Positions 3 to 19,643 of a stretch of 23,326 nt of DNA are shown piece after piece. The notes beneath the pieces were generated by a model. The model searched no databases. It was not told the DNA's origin and worked only from the letters and a program-made list of their open reading frames with translations. Every line of letters starts with the position of its first letter. The stretch's first letter is position 1. Source of the stretch: a bacterium (GTDB lineage: Bacteria > Bacillota > Clostridia > Christensenellales > Aristaeellaceae). Both the position numbers and the translations under genes were made by a program. The stretch spans positions 3,757-27,082 of the forward strand of contig CAVFPH010000019.1 of assembly GCA_963624325.1 (NCBI GenBank). The letters run 5' to 3'.

Positions 3-233
3 GCCTGCCGTGTTACCGCCAGCGAGGATGGCGGCAAGCGCAAGTATATCCGTAATTTGATCGACAGACTCTCCGAGGATAACCCGAAAGTCAAAAACAA
101 CATTTTTGCCGCACTGTCGGCGGTTGATTTGGATACGGTGCTGGGCTACCGCGCAGTCGGCGCGGATGCCGTAACACCCTTTACGCAGGATTACACCGCG
201 CCGCAGCGGCCAAAACCGGAGGTGAAAACATGA
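3..233 (+). CDS. 3' end of an upstream CDS cut by the window edge; product not identifiable from the 76 C-terminal residues
   Basis: Frame 3 is open from the window edge (ACRVTASEDGGKRKYIRNLIDRLSEDNPKV...QRPKPEVKT*) with G/C-rich third positions. Its TGA (231-233) overlaps the next gene's ATG (230-232) as ATGA, a typical coupled junction. It is absent from the ORF track because it has no in-window start. Confidence 0.5.
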   Translation, partial: ACRVTASEDGGKRKYIRNLIDRLSEDNPKVKNNIFAALSAVDLDTVLGYRAVGADAVTPFTQDYTAPQRPKPEVKT

Positions 234-1090
234 ATCCGCAGAAGATCGCCATTTTGACGGACTCCTGCACCGATGTCCCGCAGGAACTAATTGCGCAGTA
301 TCAGATGTATGTAGTCCCCATGCGCGTGATCTATCACGATGGGGAATTTACCGACAAGGTGGATATTACCCCGCAGCAGGTGTATGACCGCCTGGAGACG
401 GAAGTGCCGCATACCTCCCTGCCCAGCATTGATACCGTGTGCGATGCCCTGCGCAGCATTGAGCAGGCGGGGTATGAACATGTGATTGCCGTGTCCATCT
501 CCGGCGCACTTTCGGGGACGGGCAATGCCATGCGGTTGGCCGCGGAGCAGTTCCCGAACCTTGACTGCCGCGTGATGGATACCCTGAATATCGGCATCGG
601 AGCGGGTTTTCAGGCAATTTACGCGGGACGGCTGATTGAACAGGGCTTGGATATGGACGAAATCTGCCGAAAAATCCACTACAGCATTGAACATACCCAC
701 GTATACTTTTGCCTGGCAACGCTGGAATATCTGCGCAAGGGCGGAAGAATCGGCCGGGTGGCCTCCATGCTGGGCTCGGTGCTGAACCTGAAACCCATCA
801 TTTCCTGCGATGCGGACGGCGCATACTATGTTGTCAGCAAGGCACGCGGACGGGTTAAGGCCGTCGCAGAGACGGTTGCGCTGGCATTGAAACAGGCACA
901 GGGAAACGCAAAATACTGTATTGCAGTGGCAAACGGCAGCGCAAAGGAGGAAGCCGCCAAGCTGGCAGCCGAGCTGAAAAAGCTGCTGCCAAATGCCCAG
1001 CTGTTTTTGGAATGTGAGGTTAGCCCTGCCCTGGGTGTCCACACCGGCCCGGGGCTGCTGGGCATCGGTGTGCAGCTGCTGGAAGGCTGA
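230..1090 (+). CDS. DegV-family fatty-acid-binding protein (FakB-like)
   Basis: 286-aa ORF with SD GGAGGTG 6 nt upstream. N-terminus KIAILTDSCTDVP, then HTSLPS and VSISGALSGTGNA, match the DegV hallmarks (DS..d.p, TSqPs, lSs.LSGTy). Confidence 0.9.
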   Translation: MNPQKIAILTDSCTDVPQELIAQYQMYVVPMRVIYHDGEFTDKVDITPQQVYDRLETEVPHTSLPSIDTVCDALRSIEQAGYEHVIAVSISGALSGTGNAMRLAAEQFPNLDCRVMDTLNIGIGAGFQAIYAGRLIEQGLDMDEICRKIHYSIEHTHVYFCLATLEYLRKGGRIGRVASMLGSVLNLKPIISCDADGAYYVVSKARGRVKAVAETVALALKQAQGNAKYCIAVANGSAKEEAAKLAAELKKLLPNAQLFLECEVSPALGVHTGPGLLGIGVQLLEG

Positions 1091-1218: not shown

Positions 1219-1247
1219 TGGACGGACAGCTGAATTGCTGATATAAT
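1219..1247 (+). promoter_or_regulatory. Sigma-A-type promoter with extended -10 for the STAS/PP2C-kinase operon
   Basis: TGaTATAAT (TG 1239-1240, TATAAT 1242-1247). A weak -35 TGGACG (1219-1224, 4/6) sits at 17-nt spacing, just downstream of the DegV terminator. Confidence 0.5.
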
Positions 1248-1306
1248 AGCCAAGTAGGGCAGCTGCTTTTTGCTGCCATCGCATGCGCAAAGCGGGAGAA
1301 GAAGCT

Positions 1307-1606
1307 ATGAGCTTAAACATTGAACAGCACATTTCGGAAAATGCCGTGATCATCCTATCGGGACGGCTGGATACATCCACGGCCCCTCAGCTGGAGGAGG
1401 CAATTGACCGGGCACTGCCGCAGATAGAATCCCTGACGCTGGACCTTGCCGATACGGAATATGTTTCCTCGGCAGGGCTTCGCGTTATTCTGAAGGCATA
1501 CAAGGCCCTTGTGCACAAGGGTGGACTAAAACTTAAGCATGTTCGGGAGAATGTGCGGGAAGTGCTTGATATTACCGGATTTTCGGATTTTCTTGTGATC
1601 GAATAG
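1307..1606 (+). CDS. STAS-domain protein (anti-sigma-factor antagonist family, SpoIIAA/RsbV-like)
   Basis: 99 aa from ATG 1307, with SD GGGAG 1294-1298 at 8-nt spacing. The ORF-track start 1283 has no SD. Motif DLADTEYVSSAGLRVILKAYK aligns with SpoIIAA DLSFMDSSGLGVILGRYK. The Ser aligned to the phosphosite is Ser55. Confidence 0.9.
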   Translation: MSLNIEQHISENAVIILSGRLDTSTAPQLEEAIDRALPQIESLTLDLADTEYVSSAGLRVILKAYKALVHKGGLKLKHVRENVREVLDITGFSDFLVIE

Positions 1607-1637
1607 TGCCTATCTGCCGATGATTGGGGAAAATCAG

Positions 1638-3776
1638 ATGAAAATACTTCAGATGGGAATTGCCACGATGCTTCCGGTGCTTGTCTCCGGATTGCTGATG
1701 CTGCTGACAAAAAAAGTCGCGCGGTTCAGGCAGAACATCGGCAAAAGAAATATGCTGGTGGGCGTGGCATTCGGCATGCTGGCAATTCTGGCCACGGAGT
1801 TCGGAGTTCCTGCCGGCGGCGGCGCGGTGATGAACGTGCGGGATGCCGCCCCGTTGTGCGCAGGGCTTTTCTTCGGCTGCCCCGCCGGCCTTGTTTCCGG
1901 CTTCATCGGCGGCCTGCATCGCTGGCTGTGCATGCATCAGGCAAACGAAATTACCCGCATGGCCTGCGCACTGTCCACTTTTCTTGCGGGAATTTTCAGC
2001 GATATGATGCGGCGGCAGATGTTTGAAAACCGCAATCCCGGGGTGCTTTCCTGCATCGGCATCGGTTCAACCATGGAAGTGCTGCATATGCTGCTGCTTC
2101 TGGCAACAAACCTTGCAAAAGTTTCCCATGCCTTTTCCTTTGTCCAGGCCAGCGCACTGCCCATGTGCATATGCAGCGGCATTTCCGTTGGATTGTCTTC
2201 CTTGATTTGCAGTCTTCCCATTACGCCGGACCGGCTTGAATTTAAATCCAAGAAAATCAGCCATGTCTTTGGCTTTTGGCTGCTGGTATGCGTTATTGTC
2301 GCTTTTTTGACAACCAGTGCTTTTACGCAGCAGGTTGTGTATCGTATCACAACCAACGATGCGGAGCTGTACCGCAAGGTGACGATCTATCTGGTTGCCT
2401 TTATCGAAATCCTGATTTATACGGCGCTTTTTATTCTGATTTATCAAATGCTGAAAAAAAAGATTGTCCGCAACCTGCAAAAGGTGAATGAAGGACTCAA
2501 CGCCATTACAAACGGAAACCTGAATACGGTGATTGATGTACGGGACTTTCGGGAATTTTCCGAGCTTTCGGACGATGTAAACGCCACGGTATCCTCCCTG
2601 AAGCACTATATCAAAGAGGCCGAGGAGCGCATCGACCAGGAGCTTGAAATCGCCAGGCAGATTCAGCATTCCGCCCTTCCATCTGTCTTTCCGCCCTATC
2701 CCGACAGGCAGGAGTTTGAACTGTTTGCGTCCATGAATTCGGCCAAGGAGGTCGGCGGGGATTTTTACGATTTCTATTTTGCGGGCGAAGATCAGCTGGC
2801 CTTTATGATTGCCGATGTATCCGGCAAGGGCATTCCAGCTGCCATGTTCATGATGACGGCAAAGACAACCATCAAGGATCTGGCAGAAAGCGGGCTTCCC
2901 ATCGACGAGGTGATGAACCGCACCAATGAGCGGCTGTGCGCCGGCAACGAGGCAGGCATGTTCGTAACTGCCTGGATGGGTATCCTGAATTTGAAAACAG
3001 GCCTTGTGCGCTTTGTCAATGCCGGGCATAATCCCCCCCTTGTGTGCTGCGGGGACAGCGATTATACGTATTTCAAAACCCGCCCCAATCTGGTGCTTGC
3101 CGGCATGGAGGGGGTTCGTTACCGCGCGGGCGAACTGCAGCTTTCTCCGGGTGATACGATTGTTTTGTACACTGACGGCGTAACCGAGGCCACCAACAGC
3201 AAGGGCAAGCTCTACGGCGAAGAGCGGCTGAACCGTGTGCTCAACACGTACAAAATCCTGCCCATTGAAGAATTATGTGAGCGTATTCGCGCCGATGTGG
3301 ATATTTTTGTGGATGATGCGCCGCAATTTGATGATATTACCCTGCTTGCACTGAAATATAAAGGTGGCGGCATGAAAAAGATGACACTTGAAGCAGCTGT
3401 TGACAACCTTGAACGCGTGACGGCGTTTGTGGATGATTTGCTGGAGGCGCATGGCTGCACGCCTCGCGCCCGCACGCAGATTGACGTGGCCATTGACGAA
3501 ATTTTCTGCAATATTGCCAGCTACGCCTATGCGCCGGGGAAAGGAAGCGTGACCGTGGCGGCCGATGTGCAAAACGGCGCCGCTGTAATTGAGTTTACGG
3601 ATGAAGGCATGCCCTTTAACCCCTTGGCGGCGGACGATCCCGATTTGACGCTGGATGCCGAGGAGCGCGAGGTCGGCGGTCTGGGCATCTATCTGGTAAA
3701 GAAAACGATGGATGATCTGCAGTATACCCGTGAAAACGGGAAAAACATCCTGAAAATCACCAAGCGCATCCAATGA
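1638..3776 (+). CDS. Membrane sensor fused to PP2C (SpoIIE/RsbU-type) phosphatase and RsbW/SpoIIAB-type serine kinase (HATPase_c_2): 5TMR-LYT-like TM domain - HAMP - PP2C - HATPase
   Basis: Single ORF. Alternative in-frame starts are 1620, 1638 and 1653; 1638 is preferred because of GGGGAA 7 nt upstream. The N-terminal ~280 aa are polytopic, with MNVRDAAPLCAGLFFGCPAGLVSGFIGGLHRW resembling LytS/YhcK 5TM receptors. HAMP-like segment: NLQKVNEGLNAITNGNLNTVIDVRDFREFSELSDDVNATVSSL. PP2C motifs: EVGGDFYDF, IADVSGKGIPAAMFM, YTDGVTEA, FDDITLLAL. C-terminal 135 aa carry the N-box DEIFCNIASYA, G1-like FTDEGMPFNP and G2 GGLGIYLV. Confidence 0.9.
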   Translation: MKILQMGIATMLPVLVSGLLMLLTKKVARFRQNIGKRNMLVGVAFGMLAILATEFGVPAGGGAVMNVRDAAPLCAGLFFGCPAGLVSGFIGGLHRWLCMHQANEITRMACALSTFLAGIFSDMMRRQMFENRNPGVLSCIGIGSTMEVLHMLLLLATNLAKVSHAFSFVQASALPMCICSGISVGLSSLICSLPITPDRLEFKSKKISHVFGFWLLVCVIVAFLTTSAFTQQVVYRITTNDAELYRKVTIYLVAFIEILIYTALFILIYQMLKKKIVRNLQKVNEGLNAITNGNLNTVIDVRDFREFSELSDDVNATVSSLKHYIKEAEERIDQELEIARQIQHSALPSVFPPYPDRQEFELFASMNSAKEVGGDFYDFYFAGEDQLAFMIADVSGKGIPAAMFMMTAKTTIKDLAESGLPIDEVMNRTNERLCAGNEAGMFVTAWMGILNLKTGLVRFVNAGHNPPLVCCGDSDYTYFKTRPNLVLAGMEGVRYRAGELQLSPGDTIVLYTDGVTEATNSKGKLYGEERLNRVLNTYKILPIEELCERIRADVDIFVDDAPQFDDITLLALKYKGGGMKKMTLEAAVDNLERVTAFVDDLLEAHGCTPRARTQIDVAIDEIFCNIASYAYAPGKGSVTVAADVQNGAAVIEFTDEGMPFNPLAADDPDLTLDAEEREVGGLGIYLVKKTMDDLQYTRENGKNILKITKRIQ

Positions 3777-3801
3777 ATTAGCAAAGGGAGAGGACAGAAC
3801 C

Positions 3802-4974
3802 ATGCTGAATGCAAGAAGCGAAAATGAAGTGCTGACAATTGCTCTTAGCGGGCATATTGATTCCACCAACGCACCTGAAATGGAAAAAGAGGCCGCCGAG
3901 CTTCGGCAGCAGTACCCGCACAAGGCGCTGGTTCTGGATATGGAGAACCTGGAATACATTTCCAGTGCCGGGCTGCGCGTGATCCTGCGCCTCCGCAAGC
4001 AGGAGGATAACCTGAGCCTGATCAACGTAAGCTCCTCGGTTTATGAGGTGCTGGATATGACGGGCTTTGCCGAGATGATGCCGGTGCAAAAGGCCTTTCG
4101 CCGCCTGAGCGTGGAGGGCTGCGAGGTAATCGGCCGCGGCGCCAACGGCAAGGTTTACCGCTTGGATCGGGATACCATCATCAAGGTCTACTATAACCCC
4201 GACAGCCTGCCCGACATTCGCCGGGAGCGTGAGCTGGCGCGCAAGGCGCTGGTGCTGGGCATCCCCACGGCCATTCCCTTTGACGTGGTTCGGGTGGGGG
4301 ACAGCTACGGCTCGGTGTTTGAGCTGCTCAACGCCAAGTCCTTTTCCAAGCTTCTTATTGCCGATCCCGACCATATGGATGACTATGTGTCCCAGTATGT
4401 TGACCTGCTGAAAACCATCCACAGCACGCACGTAAAGCCGGGCGAAATGCCGCGGATGAAGGATGTCGCCGTCGGCTGGGGCAATTTCCTGCGGGATTAT
4501 TTGCCTGAGGAACAGGCAGAACGCCTGTGCGCCCTGATTGCCGCTGTACCCGATCGGGATACCATGCTGCACGGGGATTATCACACCAACAACCTGATGA
4601 TGCAGGATGGCGAGGCCCTGCTGATTGATATGGATACCGTATGTGTCGGCCACCCGATTTTTGAACTGGCCAGCATGTATCTGGGCTTTGTGGGCTTTGG
4701 CGAGCTGGATCATGAGGTGACAAAAAAGTTCATGGGGCTGGATTATTCCCTCACCTGCGAATTCTGGCGCCGCAGCCTGCGCCGTTATCTGGGCGATGCC
4801 GATGAGAATAGCGTGCGCGCCGTTGAGCGCAAGGCCATGCTGATCGGCTATGCCCGCCTGATGCGCCGCACCATCCGCCGGGAGGCCGATACCGAAAGCG
4901 GCCGGGCCGTGATTGCATCCTGCAAAAAGCACATCGGGGAGCTGCTGCCCACAATCGACACGCTGGATTTTTAA
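3802..4974 (+). CDS. STAS domain fused to an aminoglycoside-phosphotransferase/choline-kinase/CotS-like (eukaryotic-like kinase fold) domain
   Basis: SD AGGGAGAGG lies 8 nt upstream. aa 1-~97 form a STAS domain (DMENLEYISSAGLRVILRLRK; Ser55 at nt 3964-3966). aa ~100-390 carry the Gly-loop IGRGANGKVY, the Lys in IIKVY, the catalytic loop LHGDYHTNNL (HxDxxxxN Brenner motif) and the metal-binding LIDMDT. Confidence 0.85.
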   Translation: MLNARSENEVLTIALSGHIDSTNAPEMEKEAAELRQQYPHKALVLDMENLEYISSAGLRVILRLRKQEDNLSLINVSSSVYEVLDMTGFAEMMPVQKAFRRLSVEGCEVIGRGANGKVYRLDRDTIIKVYYNPDSLPDIRRERELARKALVLGIPTAIPFDVVRVGDSYGSVFELLNAKSFSKLLIADPDHMDDYVSQYVDLLKTIHSTHVKPGEMPRMKDVAVGWGNFLRDYLPEEQAERLCALIAAVPDRDTMLHGDYHTNNLMMQDGEALLIDMDTVCVGHPIFELASMYLGFVGFGELDHEVTKKFMGLDYSLTCEFWRRSLRRYLGDADENSVRAVERKAMLIGYARLMRRTIRREADTESGRAVIASCKKHIGELLPTIDTLDF

Positions 4975-5284: not shown

Positions 5285-7939
5285 ATGAAAAAAACGCTGG
5301 CCATGCTGCTGACCCTGTGCCTGCTGGCATCCTGCCTGCCCATTGTTCACGCTGAGGATTGCCCCAAAGGCGGCGTCCACGACGTGACACAGGATATCGG
5401 CACCTACACCATCACCACCACCGATCCTACCTGCCAGAAAAAGGGCATGCGCATCTATACCTGCACCGAGTGCGGAGAGGTATTCTGGGAGGAAGGCTAC
5501 TTAGATCCGCTGGATCACAACTATCGGGAAACCGAACGCAAGAATCCTACCTGCACGGAAAACGGCTATGTTACCTATGCCTGTTCCAAGTGCCTTGACA
5601 GCTATACCGACATCCTTCAAGCCGAAGGGCATAATCAGAGCGGCCCTCTCTTCTTTCAGAAAGCTACTTGTACTCAACCGGAGACGGAATACGTGCAATG
5701 CACCAAGTGCCTGCAGCTGCAGGAGAACGGCACAACCGGAGAGGCCCTCGGCCATGACTATCGGCAAACGAACGTGGTTCCCTCCACCTGCGCGGTGGCA
5801 GGCTATATCACCTATACCTGCAACCGCTGCCCGGCTACCTATAATGATCCCTTGCCGCTGGCTGACCACAATTATGAGGTGAAGACTGCTCCCGCCACCT
5901 GCACCGAGGGCGAGCGGTGCTATGACGAGTGCAGCGAATGCGGCGATACAACAACGGGTGAATATGTCAGCGATCCCCTCGGCCATGATTATCATGTGCA
6001 GGAATTCAAGCACGTGGAACCCACCTGCGAGGAGCGCGGCAGCGATACCCACAAGTGCGCCCGCTGCGGTGAGGGCTACATGACCGCCCTGGGTGCCCTG
6101 GGCCATGATTGGACGACCACCGACGGCTATACCTACACCTGTACCCGCTGCGGCAAGGTCGAGGTGGATGAGGAGGCCAAGGCCGAGGCCGAGGCTACGC
6201 CGATCCCCAGCGCATACGGCAGTGCCAACGAAAAGGATGAGCTGACCGACCTGACGCTTACCAGCGCCATCAAGGAAGTGGGCGGCGGCTACTCCCTGCG
6301 CCGCGAGGAAGCCACGCTGAACAGCATCTCGCTGGCAGCCGAGCGCGACCCCGAAAATTCCTGGATGCGCCTGACCGCGGCGGATCCTGCCAGCCAGCTG
6401 GGCATGGTTTCCGGCTTTATCGGGGACGATATGACCATGACGCTGACCGAGAATGATAAGGAACTCAAAATCACGGGCGTCAGTATGAAGGATTCCGTGC
6501 TGACCATCACCACATCCTCCGGCGCTGTATTCGAGCTGAGCACGCCGGGCGTATCGCTGGGCTATACCGAGCTGGACAGCATTTCCGAGAAAAACCTGGA
6601 CCGCATCATATTCAAACGTTCGGGCGGCGTGCTGATGATCGATTTCGGCTCCGCTGAGGCGATGAAGGCGGAGGTTGCGGCCGCGCTTGCCACCCCCGCG
6701 CCCACATACCATGTTGAGATTAAATTCTCCAAGGCGAACATTACGACCCCCACTCCCACGCCCGCGCCCATATACGTGGTTAACATCACATTCAGCAAGG
6801 CGAACATTACAAGAGAGGAGCCGTCCGCTACCCCCGAACCGACGGTCGCAATCGTGCCGGAAGAAGAGTGCAGGATTGTTATCATCGCATACGACGACGA
6901 GGAGGATGTCGCGAAATACGAGCGCTCCATCTGCCCGCATCAGTGGGAGTATGCCGAAGAGAACACTTGCCAGGCATCCAGAACATGCAAGCTCTGCGGA
7001 AAGCAGGAGGATACCCCGTCGGAGCACTGCTGGTACGCATGGAATAAGGTTGTAGACGGCAAGCAGTATGATATGAACGTAACATCGATCACTGATGCAA
7101 ACGGTTTTGTCATCACTGACTATGTGGTGTCTACATACATTTTGAAATGCCGCTACTGCGATGCCACGATGGAGGAAACCTCGCTCAATCAGGTGGCGGG
7201 CAAGTGTACGCATCCCCGGCTGAAAGAGAAAACAACAGCATACGTAAATGACGGCGATGATGTAAGAAAATATTGGTGTACCAACGCGATGCAGTGTCCG
7301 GATTGCCATTCACAAGTCAAGGCTGTCGGTCACAACTGGAAAATTACCGGCGAGAGCGGCGATTATTACACGGCCGTTTGCCAGCGCTGCGGAAAAACCA
7401 TCAACGCAAACAAGAAATACTACAACAGCGCAAAAGGCAAGCTGGACACAAGTGAAATGTCCTGCGCGGATGACCCCAACAACCATCGCTGGGTGACTGT
7501 CGAGTCCAACGGCTGCAAACAGACGCTTGTGTGCAGCAACTGCGGCAAGCAGACAACAACGGACCACGACTGGGAGGTTACCAAACAGCTGTGCAACTAT
7601 ACAGCCGTATGCCGGAAGTGCGGGAAAACGGAAAAGGTAACCATCCACCCCGAAATCGATGTAGAGTCAATCAACCGGGGAGAAACAGTAAAAAAATGGT
7701 GGATCGACCAGCATTACGAATATAATGTATATGTGACATATGCATATTGTACAAGCTGCGGACTGACATTAGCCAGCGAAAAAGCTGAAGAATACAAAAT
7801 TAGCTTTAATGAATATAAAAACAGTGATTACGAGACGAAAAAGATAGAGAAGCTGAAGAGGAAATTCGGTGTCGATAAATTCCCTGCCACCTATACATTG
7901 CCCGTTTATCTAACGGACGGCTACATTAACTCCAAATAA
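5285..7939 (+). CDS. Large secreted or lipoprotein Cys-rich repeat protein (884 aa), family unassigned
   Basis: SD GGAG lies 6 nt upstream. Signal peptide MKKTLAMLLTLCLLASCLPIVHA has a lipobox-like LASC (Cys17) and an alternative AxA-type site VHA/ED. About 45 Cys in the mature protein fall in regular CxxC-containing modules. There is no LPXTG, SLH or C-terminal TM segment. Confidence 0.85.
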   Translation: MKKTLAMLLTLCLLASCLPIVHAEDCPKGGVHDVTQDIGTYTITTTDPTCQKKGMRIYTCTECGEVFWEEGYLDPLDHNYRETERKNPTCTENGYVTYACSKCLDSYTDILQAEGHNQSGPLFFQKATCTQPETEYVQCTKCLQLQENGTTGEALGHDYRQTNVVPSTCAVAGYITYTCNRCPATYNDPLPLADHNYEVKTAPATCTEGERCYDECSECGDTTTGEYVSDPLGHDYHVQEFKHVEPTCEERGSDTHKCARCGEGYMTALGALGHDWTTTDGYTYTCTRCGKVEVDEEAKAEAEATPIPSAYGSANEKDELTDLTLTSAIKEVGGGYSLRREEATLNSISLAAERDPENSWMRLTAADPASQLGMVSGFIGDDMTMTLTENDKELKITGVSMKDSVLTITTSSGAVFELSTPGVSLGYTELDSISEKNLDRIIFKRSGGVLMIDFGSAEAMKAEVAAALATPAPTYHVEIKFSKANITTPTPTPAPIYVVNITFSKANITREEPSATPEPTVAIVPEEECRIVIIAYDDEEDVAKYERSICPHQWEYAEENTCQASRTCKLCGKQEDTPSEHCWYAWNKVVDGKQYDMNVTSITDANGFVITDYVVSTYILKCRYCDATMEETSLNQVAGKCTHPRLKEKTTAYVNDGDDVRKYWCTNAMQCPDCHSQVKAVGHNWKITGESGDYYTAVCQRCGKTINANKKYYNSAKGKLDTSEMSCADDPNNHRWVTVESNGCKQTLVCSNCGKQTTTDHDWEVTKQLCNYTAVCRKCGKTEKVTIHPEIDVESINRGETVKKWWIDQHYEYNVYVTYAYCTSCGLTLASEKAEEYKISFNEYKNSDYETKKIEKLKRKFGVDKFPATYTLPVYLTDGYINSK
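5360..6154 (+). repeat. Protein-level tandem array: 6 full + 1 partial ~40-aa modules, [GD]-H-[DN]-[YW]...P-[ST]-C-x9-C-x2-C
   Basis: Cys triplets at aa (50,60,63), (90,100,103), (129,139,142), (169,179,182), (206,216,219), (248,258,261) and the partial (286,289). Each is followed 13 or 15 aa later by the His of DHNY/GHNQ/GHDY/DHNY/GHDY/GHDW. The DNA copies have diverged, with no long exact nucleotide repeats. Confidence 0.7.
6704..6835 (+). repeat. Two tandem 22-aa units (TYHVEIKFSKANITTPTPTPAP / IYVVNITFSKANITREEPSATP) in a Pro/Thr-rich linker
   Basis: The exact 14-nt AAGGCGAACATTAC occurs at 6731-6744 and again at 6797-6810 (66-nt period). Both copies encode FSKANIT. Confidence 0.6.
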
Positions 7940-17280: not shown

Positions 17281-17979
17281 GTGAAAGCGTATATGAAAAC
17301 CCATCGCGGCCTTGTGCGTGAGCAGAATGAGGATACCGTCTGTGTATCCGATCCGCTTTATGTGCTTGCCGACGGTATGGGCGGACATCAGGCCGGGGAG
17401 GTCGCAAGCGCGCTTGCGGCACACACCCTTTGCGAAACGCTGTGCAACGTGCAGCCTTCTTCCGATGCGCTGATCCGAGGATATCAAACTGCCAACAGCA
17501 CTGTTTTTGGCCGCCAGAAAGAGGACAAAGCGCTTTCGGGCATGGGCACGACCATGACGGCCTTGTGGGAGGATCGGGAGTATGTTTTTGTCGGGCAGAT
17601 CGGCGACAGCCGTGCCTACCTGTTTCGGGACGGAAAACTGCATCAGATTACCGAGGATCAGTCCATGGTGGCCGAAATGGTGCGTGCAGGCGCGATTACA
17701 AAGGAACAGGCACGAAATCATCCGTACCGCAATGTGATCATGCAGGCAGTGGGAACGGAAACACGGCTGAATCCAGTCGTTACCCGCATTCTGAAAACCC
17801 CGGGGGATTGCTGGCTGCTGTGCTCCGACGGGCTTACCGACATGGCTAAGGATGAAGAAATCGCGGCGGTGCTTGCCGAATATCCGCCGCAGGAGGCTGC
17901 GGAAGAACTGATCCGCCTTGCCCTTGCGCATGGCGGAACGGACAACGTGAGCGTCCTGCTGCTGGAGGTGGAGGCATGA
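17281..17979 (+). CDS. stp: PP2C-family Ser/Thr phosphatase Stp/PrpC
   Basis: GLVREQNEDT, LADGMGGHQAGEVAS, LCSDGLTDM, GGTDNVSVLL. The GTG start is 9 nt after GGGAGG (ATG 17293 is an alternative). ATGA overlap with prkC. Confidence 0.9.
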   Translation: MKAYMKTHRGLVREQNEDTVCVSDPLYVLADGMGGHQAGEVASALAAHTLCETLCNVQPSSDALIRGYQTANSTVFGRQKEDKALSGMGTTMTALWEDREYVFVGQIGDSRAYLFRDGKLHQITEDQSMVAEMVRAGAITKEQARNHPYRNVIMQAVGTETRLNPVVTRILKTPGDCWLLCSDGLTDMAKDEEIAAVLAEYPPQEAAEELIRLALAHGGTDNVSVLLLEVEA

Positions 17980-19643
17980 TCGGACGCGTGTTTGCCCAGC
18001 GCTATCGGCTGGAGGAGTTTATCGGCAAGGGCGGCATGGCACTTGTCTTCCGTGCGACGGATTTGCGCACGGGTCATGATGTGGCGGTTAAAATACTGCG
18101 TCCGGAATTCAACAACGATAAGGAATTTCTGGAGCGTTTTCAGCGCGAGGCGCTTGCCGCCAGCAAGATGAGCCACCACAACATTGTAAATTTGCTGGAT
18201 GTCGGTCAGGAAGAAAACTATCGGTATCTGGTCATGGATTATATGCGGGGTCGGACACTGAAAGAAGTGATCACCGAAAAAGGCCATTTGCCCGAGCAAG
18301 TGGCGGCGCAGATCACCATACGCATCCTTTCGGCCTTGCAGCATGCGCACAATAACGGTATTATTCACCGCGACATAAAGCCGCAAAACATTCTGGTAAA
18401 CGCCGAAGGCATGATCAAGGTTGCCGATTTCGGCATCGCGCGCATTGCCGGCAGCAGTACGCTGTCCAAGGGGGACAGCGTGATGGGCTCGGTGCACTAC
18501 TTTTCGCCCGAGCAGGCACGCGGTGAGAATGTCACCTATGCCAGTGATTTGTACAGCGTTGGGGTCGTCCTTTATGAAATGCTGACCGGACAGGTGCCCT
18601 TTGACGGCGATACGCCCGTCAGCGTGGCAATGCAGCACATTTCTTCCCAGCCGAAGCCGCCTTCTCAGCTGGTGGACGGCATATCGCCTGCCATGGAACA
18701 GGTGGTGCTTACCGCCATGAGCAAGGATCCGCGCAGCCGTTATCGAGATGCGGCAGACATGGCCCGCGCCATTCATGCGGCATTGGAACATCCCGATGCG
18801 GCAGTGGGCGCGGTATCCCAGAAAACGGCCGCTCAGCACCTGCCCGGCTCGGATACGGGACGGACTGCCGCTGCGGCAAGACAGCGGAAAAAGCAGCGCT
18901 TCCGGGAAAAACTGCTGATATTGGGGCTGACTTTGGTTGCGCTGGCTGTCCTCTCGGTGGGCACGGTGGAGATTGTGCGCAGCATTGTAAACACGGTTGA
19001 AGCACCCTATCTGATTGGCGAAACCGAGGAAAACGCCAAAAAGATGGGCGAGGATCGCGGCCTTCGCGTAGAGGTCACCCGTCAAAGCGACAGCAAAACA
19101 CCGGCGGGAATCGTCATCATGCAGTCCCGCGAATACCAGTACCGCATGAAGCGCGGCGATGTAATATTGATTACCGTCAGCACCGGCCCCGAAAAACAGG
19201 GGGCTCCAGCATTGACGGGCATGCTGCTGTCCCAGGCACAAACGGAGGCAGAAAAGTACGGCTTCAAAGTACTGGCAAGCAGTTATCGGGAATCGGATCA
19301 GCCATTTAACACGGTGCTGGAGCAAACCCCGGCCGAAGGAGAAATGCTGGCATACGGCGAAATCATTCAGGTGGTTGTCAGCGGAAGCGTGACGATGCCC
19401 TCCTTGACCGATTTAACCAGTACGCAGGCAATCCAGCAGCTGCAAAGTGTCAGCATGAACAATATCCAGATTGTGGAAACACCTTCGTCCGATCCATCCC
19501 GCGTGGGGCGGGTGGCGGATCAGCTGCCCAAGGCGGGCGAGCGGGTTTTGTATGATGCCGTTGTGACATTGGCGGTATACGTTCAGGCGGCAGCTGATGC
19601 CGATCAACCTGCCGATACTGCCGCGCCGTCGGGCTCAGATTAA
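17976..19643 (+). CDS. prkC: Hanks-type Ser/Thr kinase PrkC/PknB with one TM segment and three extracellular PASTA-like repeats
   Basis: GKGGMALVF, VAVKIL, HRDIKPQNIL, DFGIAR and SPEQA. TM segment LLILGLTLVALAVLSVGTV. Three ~65-aa repeats follow, starting at APYLIGETEENA, APALTGMLLSQA and MPSLTDLTSTQA. Confidence 0.93.
   Translation: MIGRVFAQRYRLEEFIGKGGMALVFRATDLRTGHDVAVKILRPEFNNDKEFLERFQREALAASKMSHHNIVNLLDVGQEENYRYLVMDYMRGRTLKEVITEKGHLPEQVAAQITIRILSALQHAHNNGIIHRDIKPQNILVNAEGMIKVADFGIARIAGSSTLSKGDSVMGSVHYFSPEQARGENVTYASDLYSVGVVLYEMLTGQVPFDGDTPVSVAMQHISSQPKPPSQLVDGISPAMEQVVLTAMSKDPRSRYRDAADMARAIHAALEHPDAAVGAVSQKTAAQHLPGSDTGRTAAAARQRKKQRFREKLLILGLTLVALAVLSVGTVEIVRSIVNTVEAPYLIGETEENAKKMGEDRGLRVEVTRQSDSKTPAGIVIMQSREYQYRMKRGDVILITVSTGPEKQGAPALTGMLLSQAQTEAEKYGFKVLASSYRESDQPFNTVLEQTPAEGEMLAYGEIIQVVVSGSVTMPSLTDLTSTQAIQQLQSVSMNNIQIVETPSSDPSRVGRVADQLPKAGERVLYDAVVTLAVYVQAAADADQPADTAAPSGSD

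Follow-up and report, generated by a model that had tools for sequence, protein, structure and literature searches.

A STAS domain fused to an APH-fold kinase, the putative output of a partner-switching operon in gut and rumen Clostridia

A stretch of 23,326 nucleotides from a bacterium of the Aristaeellaceae (Bacillota; Clostridia; Christensenellales), positions 3,757 to 27,082 of contig CAVFPH010000019.1 in the assembly GCA_963624325.1, was analysed here and is called the window. The gene at 3802 to 4974 of the window encodes a STAS domain fused to a phosphotransferase domain of the aminoglycoside phosphotransferase (APH) fold, and we designated its product STAS-APH. The textbook role of partner-switching modules is the regulation of sigma factors. 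The full set of their components, a STAS protein, an HATPase_c_2 kinase and a SpoIIE/PP2C phosphatase, is present in the operon of the window that ends with STAS-APH. We consider it fairly probable that the genes from 1283 to 4974 form a partner-switching-type operon that works independently of a sigma factor, and that its output is an APH-fold kinase for a small molecule, under the control of the STAS domain that it carries.

The STAS-APH protein and its conservation

The gene for STAS-APH is a single unbroken open reading frame with an ATG start, and a ribosome-binding site rated good to strong, AAAGGGAGAGGA, is located 8 nt 5' of the ATG. The positions of the domains and motifs are given in Table 1. 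The Pfam family PF01740 (STAS) matched amino acids (aa) 3–97 (E 1.9e-14; 53.7 bits against a cutoff of 22.6), and PF01636 (APH) matched aa 108–294 (E 1.2e-17; 64.9 bits against a cutoff of 23.2). The protein also exceeded the NCBIfam cutoff for the anti-sigma antagonists of TIGR00377 (65.7 bits; cutoff 53.45). In the HMMER alignment, Ser55 falls on the phospho-acceptor position of SpoIIAA, which is occupied by Ala in the non-phosphorylatable complex 1tid. A preliminary description, made from the sequence alone, had reported a complete N-terminal STAS domain with the conserved Ser, and both the domain and the residue were confirmed. The kinase hallmarks that it had quoted, i.e., the Gly-loop, the Lys, HGDYHTNN and IDMD, were all recovered in place. 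Its division of the protein into about 97 aa of STAS followed by the kinase also holds, with a slight correction of the kinase start to around K97/A98, where the segment KAYRxLSVEGCE also opens the homologues without STAS.

The structure of the protein was predicted by AlphaFold2 with 34 homologues as input. The model has a mean predicted local distance difference test score (pLDDT) of 90.5 and a predicted template modelling score (pTM) of 0.75, and it consists of a canonical STAS beta/alpha fold and then a bilobal kinase. The STAS elements follow in the order E3-7, E10-19, H24-37, E42-53, H55-67, E71-76 and H78-86; residues 11–80 have a pLDDT of about 90–93, and S55 is located at the N-terminus of helix 2. 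The assignment of the N-terminal part to the STAS fold was therefore upheld with high confidence. The pLDDT at the junction of the two domains (residues 91–110) is 86–87, and therefore no disordered linker is present between them in the model, in which the STAS domain is rigidly attached to the N-lobe of the kinase. Only about eight residues separate D276 from the next helix, a distance that leaves no room for the activation segment of a protein kinase.

Both domains were found together in all of the 120 best database matches, which are 63–100% identical and about 390 aa long, and a relative of STAS-APH is encoded in at least 498 species genomes in a scan of one genome per species. When the kinase half alone was compared with 1.84 billion representatives, 558 clusters (50% identity) were obtained at E<=1e-30 and 2776 at E<=1e-3. 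The STAS domain is carried by 120 of the 150 best APH-domain representatives, about 12 are full-length kinases without it, and the remainder are fragments or longer fusions. From this spread, the fusion is not an artefact, a doubt that the preliminary description had raised. The conservation of each residue was counted over the 150 representatives, which are 35–64% identical to STAS-APH. The counts for the kinase were 141/142 for K128, 139/144 for E142, 145/145 for H257, 143/145 for D259, 143/144 for N264 and 145/145 for D276, and those for the STAS loop were 110/120 for S54, 116/120 for S55, 118/120 for G57 and 117/120 for R59. The catalytic residues, which are 96–100% conserved and aligned to the catalytic loop of APH(4), also answer the earlier concern that the domain might be a pseudokinase. 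These counts indicate that the catalytic residues and the Ser loop of STAS are under purifying selection, and the APH domain is apparently an active kinase with an intact catalytic site. The carriers of the family are among the dominant gut and rumen Clostridia/Bacillota (Oscillospiraceae, Lachnospiraceae, Acutalibacteraceae and Erysipelotrichaceae).

The kinase domain was compared with known families by structure, by profile and by sequence. The top Foldseek matches were APH(2''), MTR kinase, APH(3'), AmiN, APH(4) and a ChoK-like protein, each with a probability of 1.00, at identities of 10–19% and root-mean-square deviations of 5–10 Å. The best PDB match of the family profile was the hygromycin kinase APH(4) (E 4e-6), over just 73 profile positions around the catalytic loop, in which HGDxHxxN and IDMD fall on the catalytic loop and the Mg-binding Asp of that enzyme. 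The single-sequence search of the PDB gave matches for the STAS domain only, and the best one for the kinase was viomycin kinase at E 0.65. The best curated match was TIGR02172 (E 2.6e-31, aa 108–294), whose cutoff was not reached (109.2 bits against 228.2). The CotS/CotI spore-coat kinases, YihE/SrkA, CcrZ and Bud32 stayed at 15.7–23.7 bits against NCBIfam cutoffs of 125–550, and no curated NCBIfam kinase subfamily exceeded its cutoff for the APH domain. The search for a substrate by homology through PDB sequences and profiles, Foldseek and NCBIfam thus ended at the level of the fold; the preliminary description had stated that the substrate cannot be read from the sequence. A small-molecule kinase is more likely than a protein kinase, because the protein has a catalytic loop like that of APH and ChoK, the activation segment is absent from the model, all of the structural neighbours are small-molecule kinases, and homologues and HD_4-APH fusions (see below) do without STAS as a substrate. 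A basic helix in the C-lobe, RLMRRTIRR at R352-R360, is partly conserved (R352 in 91/120) and, speculatively, would fit an anionic substrate; the substrate pockets of aminoglycoside kinases are acidic.

Gene neighbourhood in the window and in related loci

STAS-APH closes an operon of three genes on the + strand, in which a free STAS protein is encoded first and a 5TMR-LYT/PP2C/RsbW-like kinase protein of 718 aa second, with gaps of 14 and 25 nt. The free and the fused STAS domains are 41% identical, and the phospho-loop EY(V/I)SSAGLRVIL is common to both. Two starts are possible for the free STAS protein, ATG 1283 for a product of 107 aa and ATG 1307 for one of 99 aa; the two forms were called in the relatives L082 and L081, respectively. 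In the 99-aa form, the phospho-Ser of its S62-S63 pair is also Ser55. In the 718-aa protein, the metal-binding PP2C motifs GGDFYD, ADVSGKG, TDG and DDIT are intact and conserved (48 homologues), and so are the GHKL motifs, i.e., the N-box ExxxN and the G1 and G2 motifs DxG and GGLG (56 homologues). A sigma-70-like promoter candidate is located in the 190-nt gap after degV, in a position that fits the start of the operon, although the match by itself is weak (3 such sites, compared with an expectation of 3.7 from shuffled sequences).

To compare the neighbourhoods, the 80 best species-level loci were annotated with hidden Markov models (HMMs) built from the window proteins, and the neighbours within 8 kb were recorded. 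In the same direction as STAS-APH, 54 loci have the RsbW-like HATPase_c_2 gene, 52 the free STAS gene and 46 the PP2C gene. The relatives that are 96% identical have the same layout of degV, STAS, PP2C-kinase and STAS-APH. The N-terminal sensory part of the PP2C protein differs across the loci, while the STAS-APH end is constant, and proteins in which the HATPase domain is covalently joined to STAS-APH on either side (HATPase-STAS-APH and STAS-APH-HATPase) are present in several clusters. This synteny and these fusions are the expected signature of a partner-switching module with an APH enzyme as its output. Within the reach of sequence and comparison, the interpretation given in the preliminary description is supported. 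Together with the intact motifs, the genomic context supports its suggestion that the neighbouring PP2C-kinase protein may set the state of the STAS domain, although the second, free STAS gene had not been weighed there.

No sigma factor was found in the window, nor was one among the 25 most recurrent neighbour families of the 80 loci, in a comparison of genomic context that would miss a distant one. The family is annotated inconsistently and probably misleadingly (proteins P0085, P0336, P0337, P0354), as "anti-sigma factor antagonist" in NCBI and UniRef, "phosphotransferase" in NCBI and "uncharacterized protein (TIGR02172 family)" in JGI. The first of these names is probably a misnomer for STAS-APH, because a sigma factor is missing from both the window and the recurrent neighbours.

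The strongest functional clue appears to come from the relatives, in which an HD_4 (RelA/SpoT hydrolase-type) gene of about 190 aa accompanies the fusion. It is co-directional with STAS-APH in 54 of the 80 loci and directly upstream of it in about 45. In L001–L009, HD_4 heads the operon, and the order is HD_4, STAS, 5TM-PP2C-HATPase and STAS-APH. The best solved relatives of the HD_4 protein, at E-values from 1e-23 to 1e-15, are small alarmone hydrolases, Mesh1 and the hydrolase domains of Rel, and its hydrolase motifs RK, H, HD, ED and DKLxNxR are nearly invariant. Fusions of the form HD_4-STAS-APH, about 604 aa long, make up 25 clusters (49–100% identity; contigs up to 94 kb), and HD_4-APH fusions without STAS, about 493 aa long, also exist. 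No HD_4 gene was detected by tblastn in the 23-kb window, and the 96%-identical relatives are likewise without it; in this lineage degV is located at the place where relatives of 70–79% identity have HD_4. Because HD_4 is co-operonic with or fused to the kinase in most relatives, the product of the kinase is suggested, speculatively, to be a phosphorylated ribose or a nucleotide-like compound.

Transporters and channels recur inside the module in the relatives. In 7 loci a MatE efflux protein ends in an RsbW-like HATPase_c_2 domain; 7 loci have a sodium:dicarboxylate symporter with an N-terminus that matched the HATPase HMM built here, and 6 have MscS-type channels. A fusion of a Na/H exchanger with STAS-APH was also found. 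Together with the 5TMR-LYT input, these transporters hint at a module that responds to membrane, ion or osmotic cues. Rare longer forms (P0251, P0224, P0246 and P0128) combine STAS-APH with a poly(A)-polymerase/CCA-adding head, HD-CE, the adenylating enzyme GH3 or the phosphoesterase PHP. Each type occurs in one representative and may be an artefact of gene calling; if they are real, several of the partners are nucleotide or phosphoester enzymes. Single-instance fusions were set aside as possible read-throughs or chimeras, namely APH-acetolactate decarboxylase, ABC_tran-APH, STAS-APH-PolyA_pol, GH3-STAS-APH, STAS-APH-PHP and STAS-APH-YezG.

Downstream of STAS-APH, after a gap of 310 nt, a secreted Cys-rich protein of 884 aa is encoded. 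It has 47 Cys and 14 CxxC motifs, the N-terminal ones about 40 aa apart (60, 100, 139, 179, 216, 258 and 286), and it matched nothing in Pfam, NCBIfam or PADLOC. L081 and L082, the 96% relatives, have this gene in the same place after the operon, and more distant loci do not. A role in anti-phage defence was also considered and rejected, as PADLOC gave no meaningful match to the operon proteins or the downstream gene; its sole match was a weak one of Csx1 to the free STAS protein (E 0.005). Farther downstream, a housekeeping block of yicC, gmk, coaBC, priA, def, fmt, rlmN, a PP2C/PASTA-kinase pair and rsgA follows. The pair, a Stp-like PP2C gene that overlaps a PrkC-like gene, is a second and unrelated Ser/Thr system and belongs to the usual def-fmt-rlmN-stp-prkC-rsgA cluster.

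Table 1. Features of the window and examples from related loci. Positions are those of the window unless a locus is named.
Feature	Position	Strand	Remarks
degV	230..1090		
Sigma-70-like promoter candidate	1219..1247	+	TGGACG-17-TATAAT, extended -10 TG; consensus match only
Free STAS protein	1283..1606	+	107 aa; Pfam STAS E 1.2e-14; TIGR00377 66.5 bits
S62-S63 of free STAS	1466-1471		
Bifunctional membrane sensor	1620..3776	+	718 aa; three Pfam domains
5TMR-LYT domain	1743-2207	+	Pfam E 2.4e-20
SpoIIE/PP2C phosphatase domain	2787-3359	+	Pfam E 6.5e-52
RsbW-like HATPase_c_2 Ser kinase domain	3390-3764	+	Pfam E 5.2e-24
STAS-APH fusion protein	3802..4974	+	390 aa plus stop
STAS domain	3808..4092	+	aa 3-97; Pfam, alignment to SpoIIAA structures
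S54-S55 of STAS	3961-3966	+	predicted phospho-acceptor Ser55 at 3964-3966
APH/eukaryotic-like-kinase-fold phosphotransferase domain	4093..4971	+	aa 98-390; Pfam APH, conservation, Foldseek, APH(4) profile match
Gly-loop IGRGANG	4129-4149	+	G111, G113, G116 present and 96-100% conserved
K128	4183-4185	+	ATP-anchoring Lys
E142	4225-4227	+	Glu partner of K128
Catalytic loop HGDYHTNN	4570-4593	+	H257, D259, N264
IDMD	4624-4635	+	Mg-binding D276 at 4627-4629
Secreted Cys-rich protein	5285..7939	+	884 aa; signal peptide
Stp-like PP2C	17281..17979	+	
PrkC-like Pkinase + 3x PASTA	17976..19643	+	
HD_4 genes, examples	L038:3571-4143; L013:7346-7984		related loci, range L001-L077
Transporters and channels, examples	L024:4091-5842; L075:9492-11156; L040:5519-6379		related loci; also protein P0192

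Proposed mechanism and alternative explanations

In the mechanism that we propose, the 5TMR-LYT domain would sense a cue related to the envelope or to ions and would shift the balance between the phosphatase and the kinase of the 718-aa protein, whose targets would be Ser55 in the fused STAS domain and its counterpart in the free STAS protein. The phosphorylation state of the fused STAS domain would then decide the activity of the APH domain, in cis, through the junction of STAS and the N-lobe; alternatively, the RsbW-like domain may capture STAS-APH in competition with the free STAS protein. The active APH domain would move the gamma-phosphate of ATP or GTP onto a hydroxyl of a small molecule, not of a protein, and in the relatives that have it the HD_4 hydrolase would remove the phosphorylated ribose or nucleotide-like product. 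A more far-reaching idea is that the APH kinase and HD_4 are the synthetase and the hydrolase of an undescribed phosphorylated nucleotide-like signal, which is under the control of the STAS phospho-switch and is widespread in gut and rumen Clostridia. We rate this idea as rather improbable; candidates for the signal would be a 2'- or 3'-phosphorylated purine nucleotide or a phosphorylated 3' end of RNA or tRNA. If it is true, the pair would be a kinase-based counterpart of the hydrolase-synthetase pair of Rel/SpoT.

Several points weigh against an APH-fold small-molecule kinase under the control of a partner switch. The likeness to the nearest solved or curated kinases is one of generic fold only, with target-normalised TM-scores of 0.4–0.6. 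The phosphorylation of Ser55, its effect and the sign of that effect, on or off, are predictions from sequence and context; position 55 is not Ser in 4 of the 120 representatives. An RsbW-like gene is absent within 8 kb in 26 of the 80 loci, and the fusion stands alone in 9 of them; in both groups some loci are cut by contig ends. The suggestion of a nucleotide-like substrate is borrowed from the relatives, and the lineage of the window has no HD_4 gene in its operon.

It is rather unlikely that the control is one of pure sequestration, in which the fused STAS domain is never phosphorylated and serves as a handle by which the RsbW-like domain holds the APH enzyme as it would a sigma factor. 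Phosphorylation and dephosphorylation would be confined to the free STAS protein, whose unphosphorylated form would displace the enzyme. The presence of two paralogous STAS modules and one RsbW-like domain in a single operon fits this arrangement, as do the free STAS gene that lies beside the fusion in most of the loci and the covalent joining of HATPase to STAS-APH in some lineages. Conversely, the acceptor loop of the fused STAS domain is complete and is conserved like the catalytic residues, and the free STAS protein has an identical loop; such conservation is hard to explain unless Ser55 is a substrate. In addition, no free STAS gene is nearby in 28 of the 80 loci.

A less probable alternative is that the APH domain is a protein kinase acting on its own or the free STAS domain, so that STAS-APH is the input or the switch, and HD_4, the transporters and other partners are the outputs. 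The eukaryotic-like kinase fold would allow this, and loci such as L015 from Flavonifractor sp. An82, L021, and L070 from Coprococcus catus have HD_4, STAS-APH and free STAS only, with GHKL kinase and PP2C absent within 8 kb. STAS-APH is also fused to varied terminal domains (HD_4, HD-CE, GH3, Na/H exchanger and PHP). However, the dedicated STAS kinase HATPase_c_2 coexists with the fusion in 54 of the 80 loci, including the window. The loop HGDxHxxN lacks the Lys of protein kinases, and neither the activation segment missing from the model nor the top structural neighbours point to a protein kinase. Since full-length homologues without STAS and HD_4-APH fusions exist, STAS is an add-on regulator rather than an obligatory substrate of the kinase.

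That STAS-APH is an antibiotic-modifying kinase of the aminoglycoside, hygromycin, macrolide or amicoumacin type with an acquired regulatory domain is very improbable. The best folds, APH(2''), APH(3'), APH(4) and AmiN, and the hygromycin-B 4-O-kinase as the best PDB profile match would agree with it, but the low identity, the confinement of the sequence match to the catalytic loop and the absence of any resistance-type family at cutoff in Pfam and NCBIfam do not. In hundreds of anaerobic species the gene belongs to a conserved signalling operon of the chromosome rather than to a mobile element, and selection for an aminoglycoside kinase is unlikely in such hosts because strict anaerobes take up aminoglycosides poorly. 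Hardly credible is a dead-scaffold kinase or a fusion made by misassembly or a frameshift, as nothing was found in its favour, the catalytic residues are at least 96% conserved in the 150 divergent representatives, and the 390-aa architecture recurs in many genomes and on many independent contigs, one of them 2.8 Mb long.

Relation to described systems

The STAS domain aligns with SpoIIAA in its fold and its Ser loop, and the HATPase_c_2 and SpoIIE domains are homologous to those of the RsbU/RsbV/RsbW-sigmaB and SpoIIE/SpoIIAA/SpoIIAB-sigmaF modules, from which the present system differs in having no sigma factor in the window or among its recurrent neighbours. Partner switches with a bifunctional kinase/phosphatase are HsbR-HsbA of Pseudomonas and SypE-SypA of Vibrio fischeri, and HsbR and SypE are, to our knowledge, the closest relatives of the 718-aa neighbour. 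In them, too, a single polypeptide that acts on STAS contains both the PP2C domain and the RsbW-like kinase, and their outputs are not sigma factors. The input is a receiver domain there and a 5TMR-LYT membrane domain here, and HsbA and SypA are single-domain STAS proteins that bind other proteins, whereas the STAS domain here is part of the effector enzyme. The SypE/SypA partner-switching system of V. fischeri has been described (PMC10120452).

As for the output, STAS-APH shares with APH, MTR kinase, AmiN and the ChoK-like protein the bilobal eukaryotic-like kinase fold, the Gly-loop, the Lys-Glu pair, the HxDxxxxN loop and the Mg-binding Asp, but its C-terminal substrate-binding helices are unrelated to theirs in sequence and carry the basic helix. 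TIGR02172, a paralogous APH-like family of Fibrobacter succinogenes, is the best curated match but is without STAS; no paper mentioning it was found. The HD_4-STAS-APH proteins of the relatives mimic the hydrolase-then-synthetase order of Rel/SpoT and are related to Mesh1 and its kin in their hydrolase part (PDB 7qoe, 7qoc, 4yf1), with the difference that the synthetase position is taken by an APH-fold kinase and not by a pyrophosphokinase of nucleotidyltransferase fold. Our literature searches found no paper on the STAS-APH architecture, and the partner-switching surveys that they returned do not mention it; nothing relevant was found that joins a STAS domain, and nothing that joins a small alarmone hydrolase, with an aminoglycoside phosphotransferase. 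Through the tight coupling with HD_4, both genetic and physical, one can look by concrete tests for a small-molecule signal or a branch of the stringent response that may be new, in organisms whose signalling is nearly unexplored.

The closest functional precedent for STAS-APH, by analogy of architecture, is the recently described All4160 of Anabaena PCC 7120, a STAS-glycosyltransferase under the control of a partner-switching-like module with the phosphatase HenR, which is SpoIIE-like, and the kinase Alr3423 (PMC13555669). With this phospho-regulated STAS-enzyme, the background given in the preliminary description, that STAS domains usually stand alone or form the tails of SulP and stressosome proteins, is dated. 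Both systems have a STAS domain covalently joined to the N-terminus of an enzyme, an anti-sigma-type Ser kinase and a SpoIIE-type PP2C as the partners of that domain, and an enzyme instead of a sigma factor as the output. The likeness is one of architecture only, since the catalytic domains, a sugar transferase there and an APH-fold kinase here, are unrelated. Here the phosphatase and the kinase reside in one membrane protein, a free STAS protein is added, and the hosts are gut and rumen Bacillota rather than cyanobacteria. A few partner switches have been shown, only recently, to control enzymes directly, and STAS-APH would add an orphan kinase to their outputs. The public annotation hides the nature of this family, which is present in hundreds of species of gut and rumen Clostridia. 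While the control of an enzyme by the phospho-STAS domain of a partner switch is known, the APH-fold kinase as output, its wide spread in gut and rumen Bacillota and the previously unnoticed link to HD_4 would be new.

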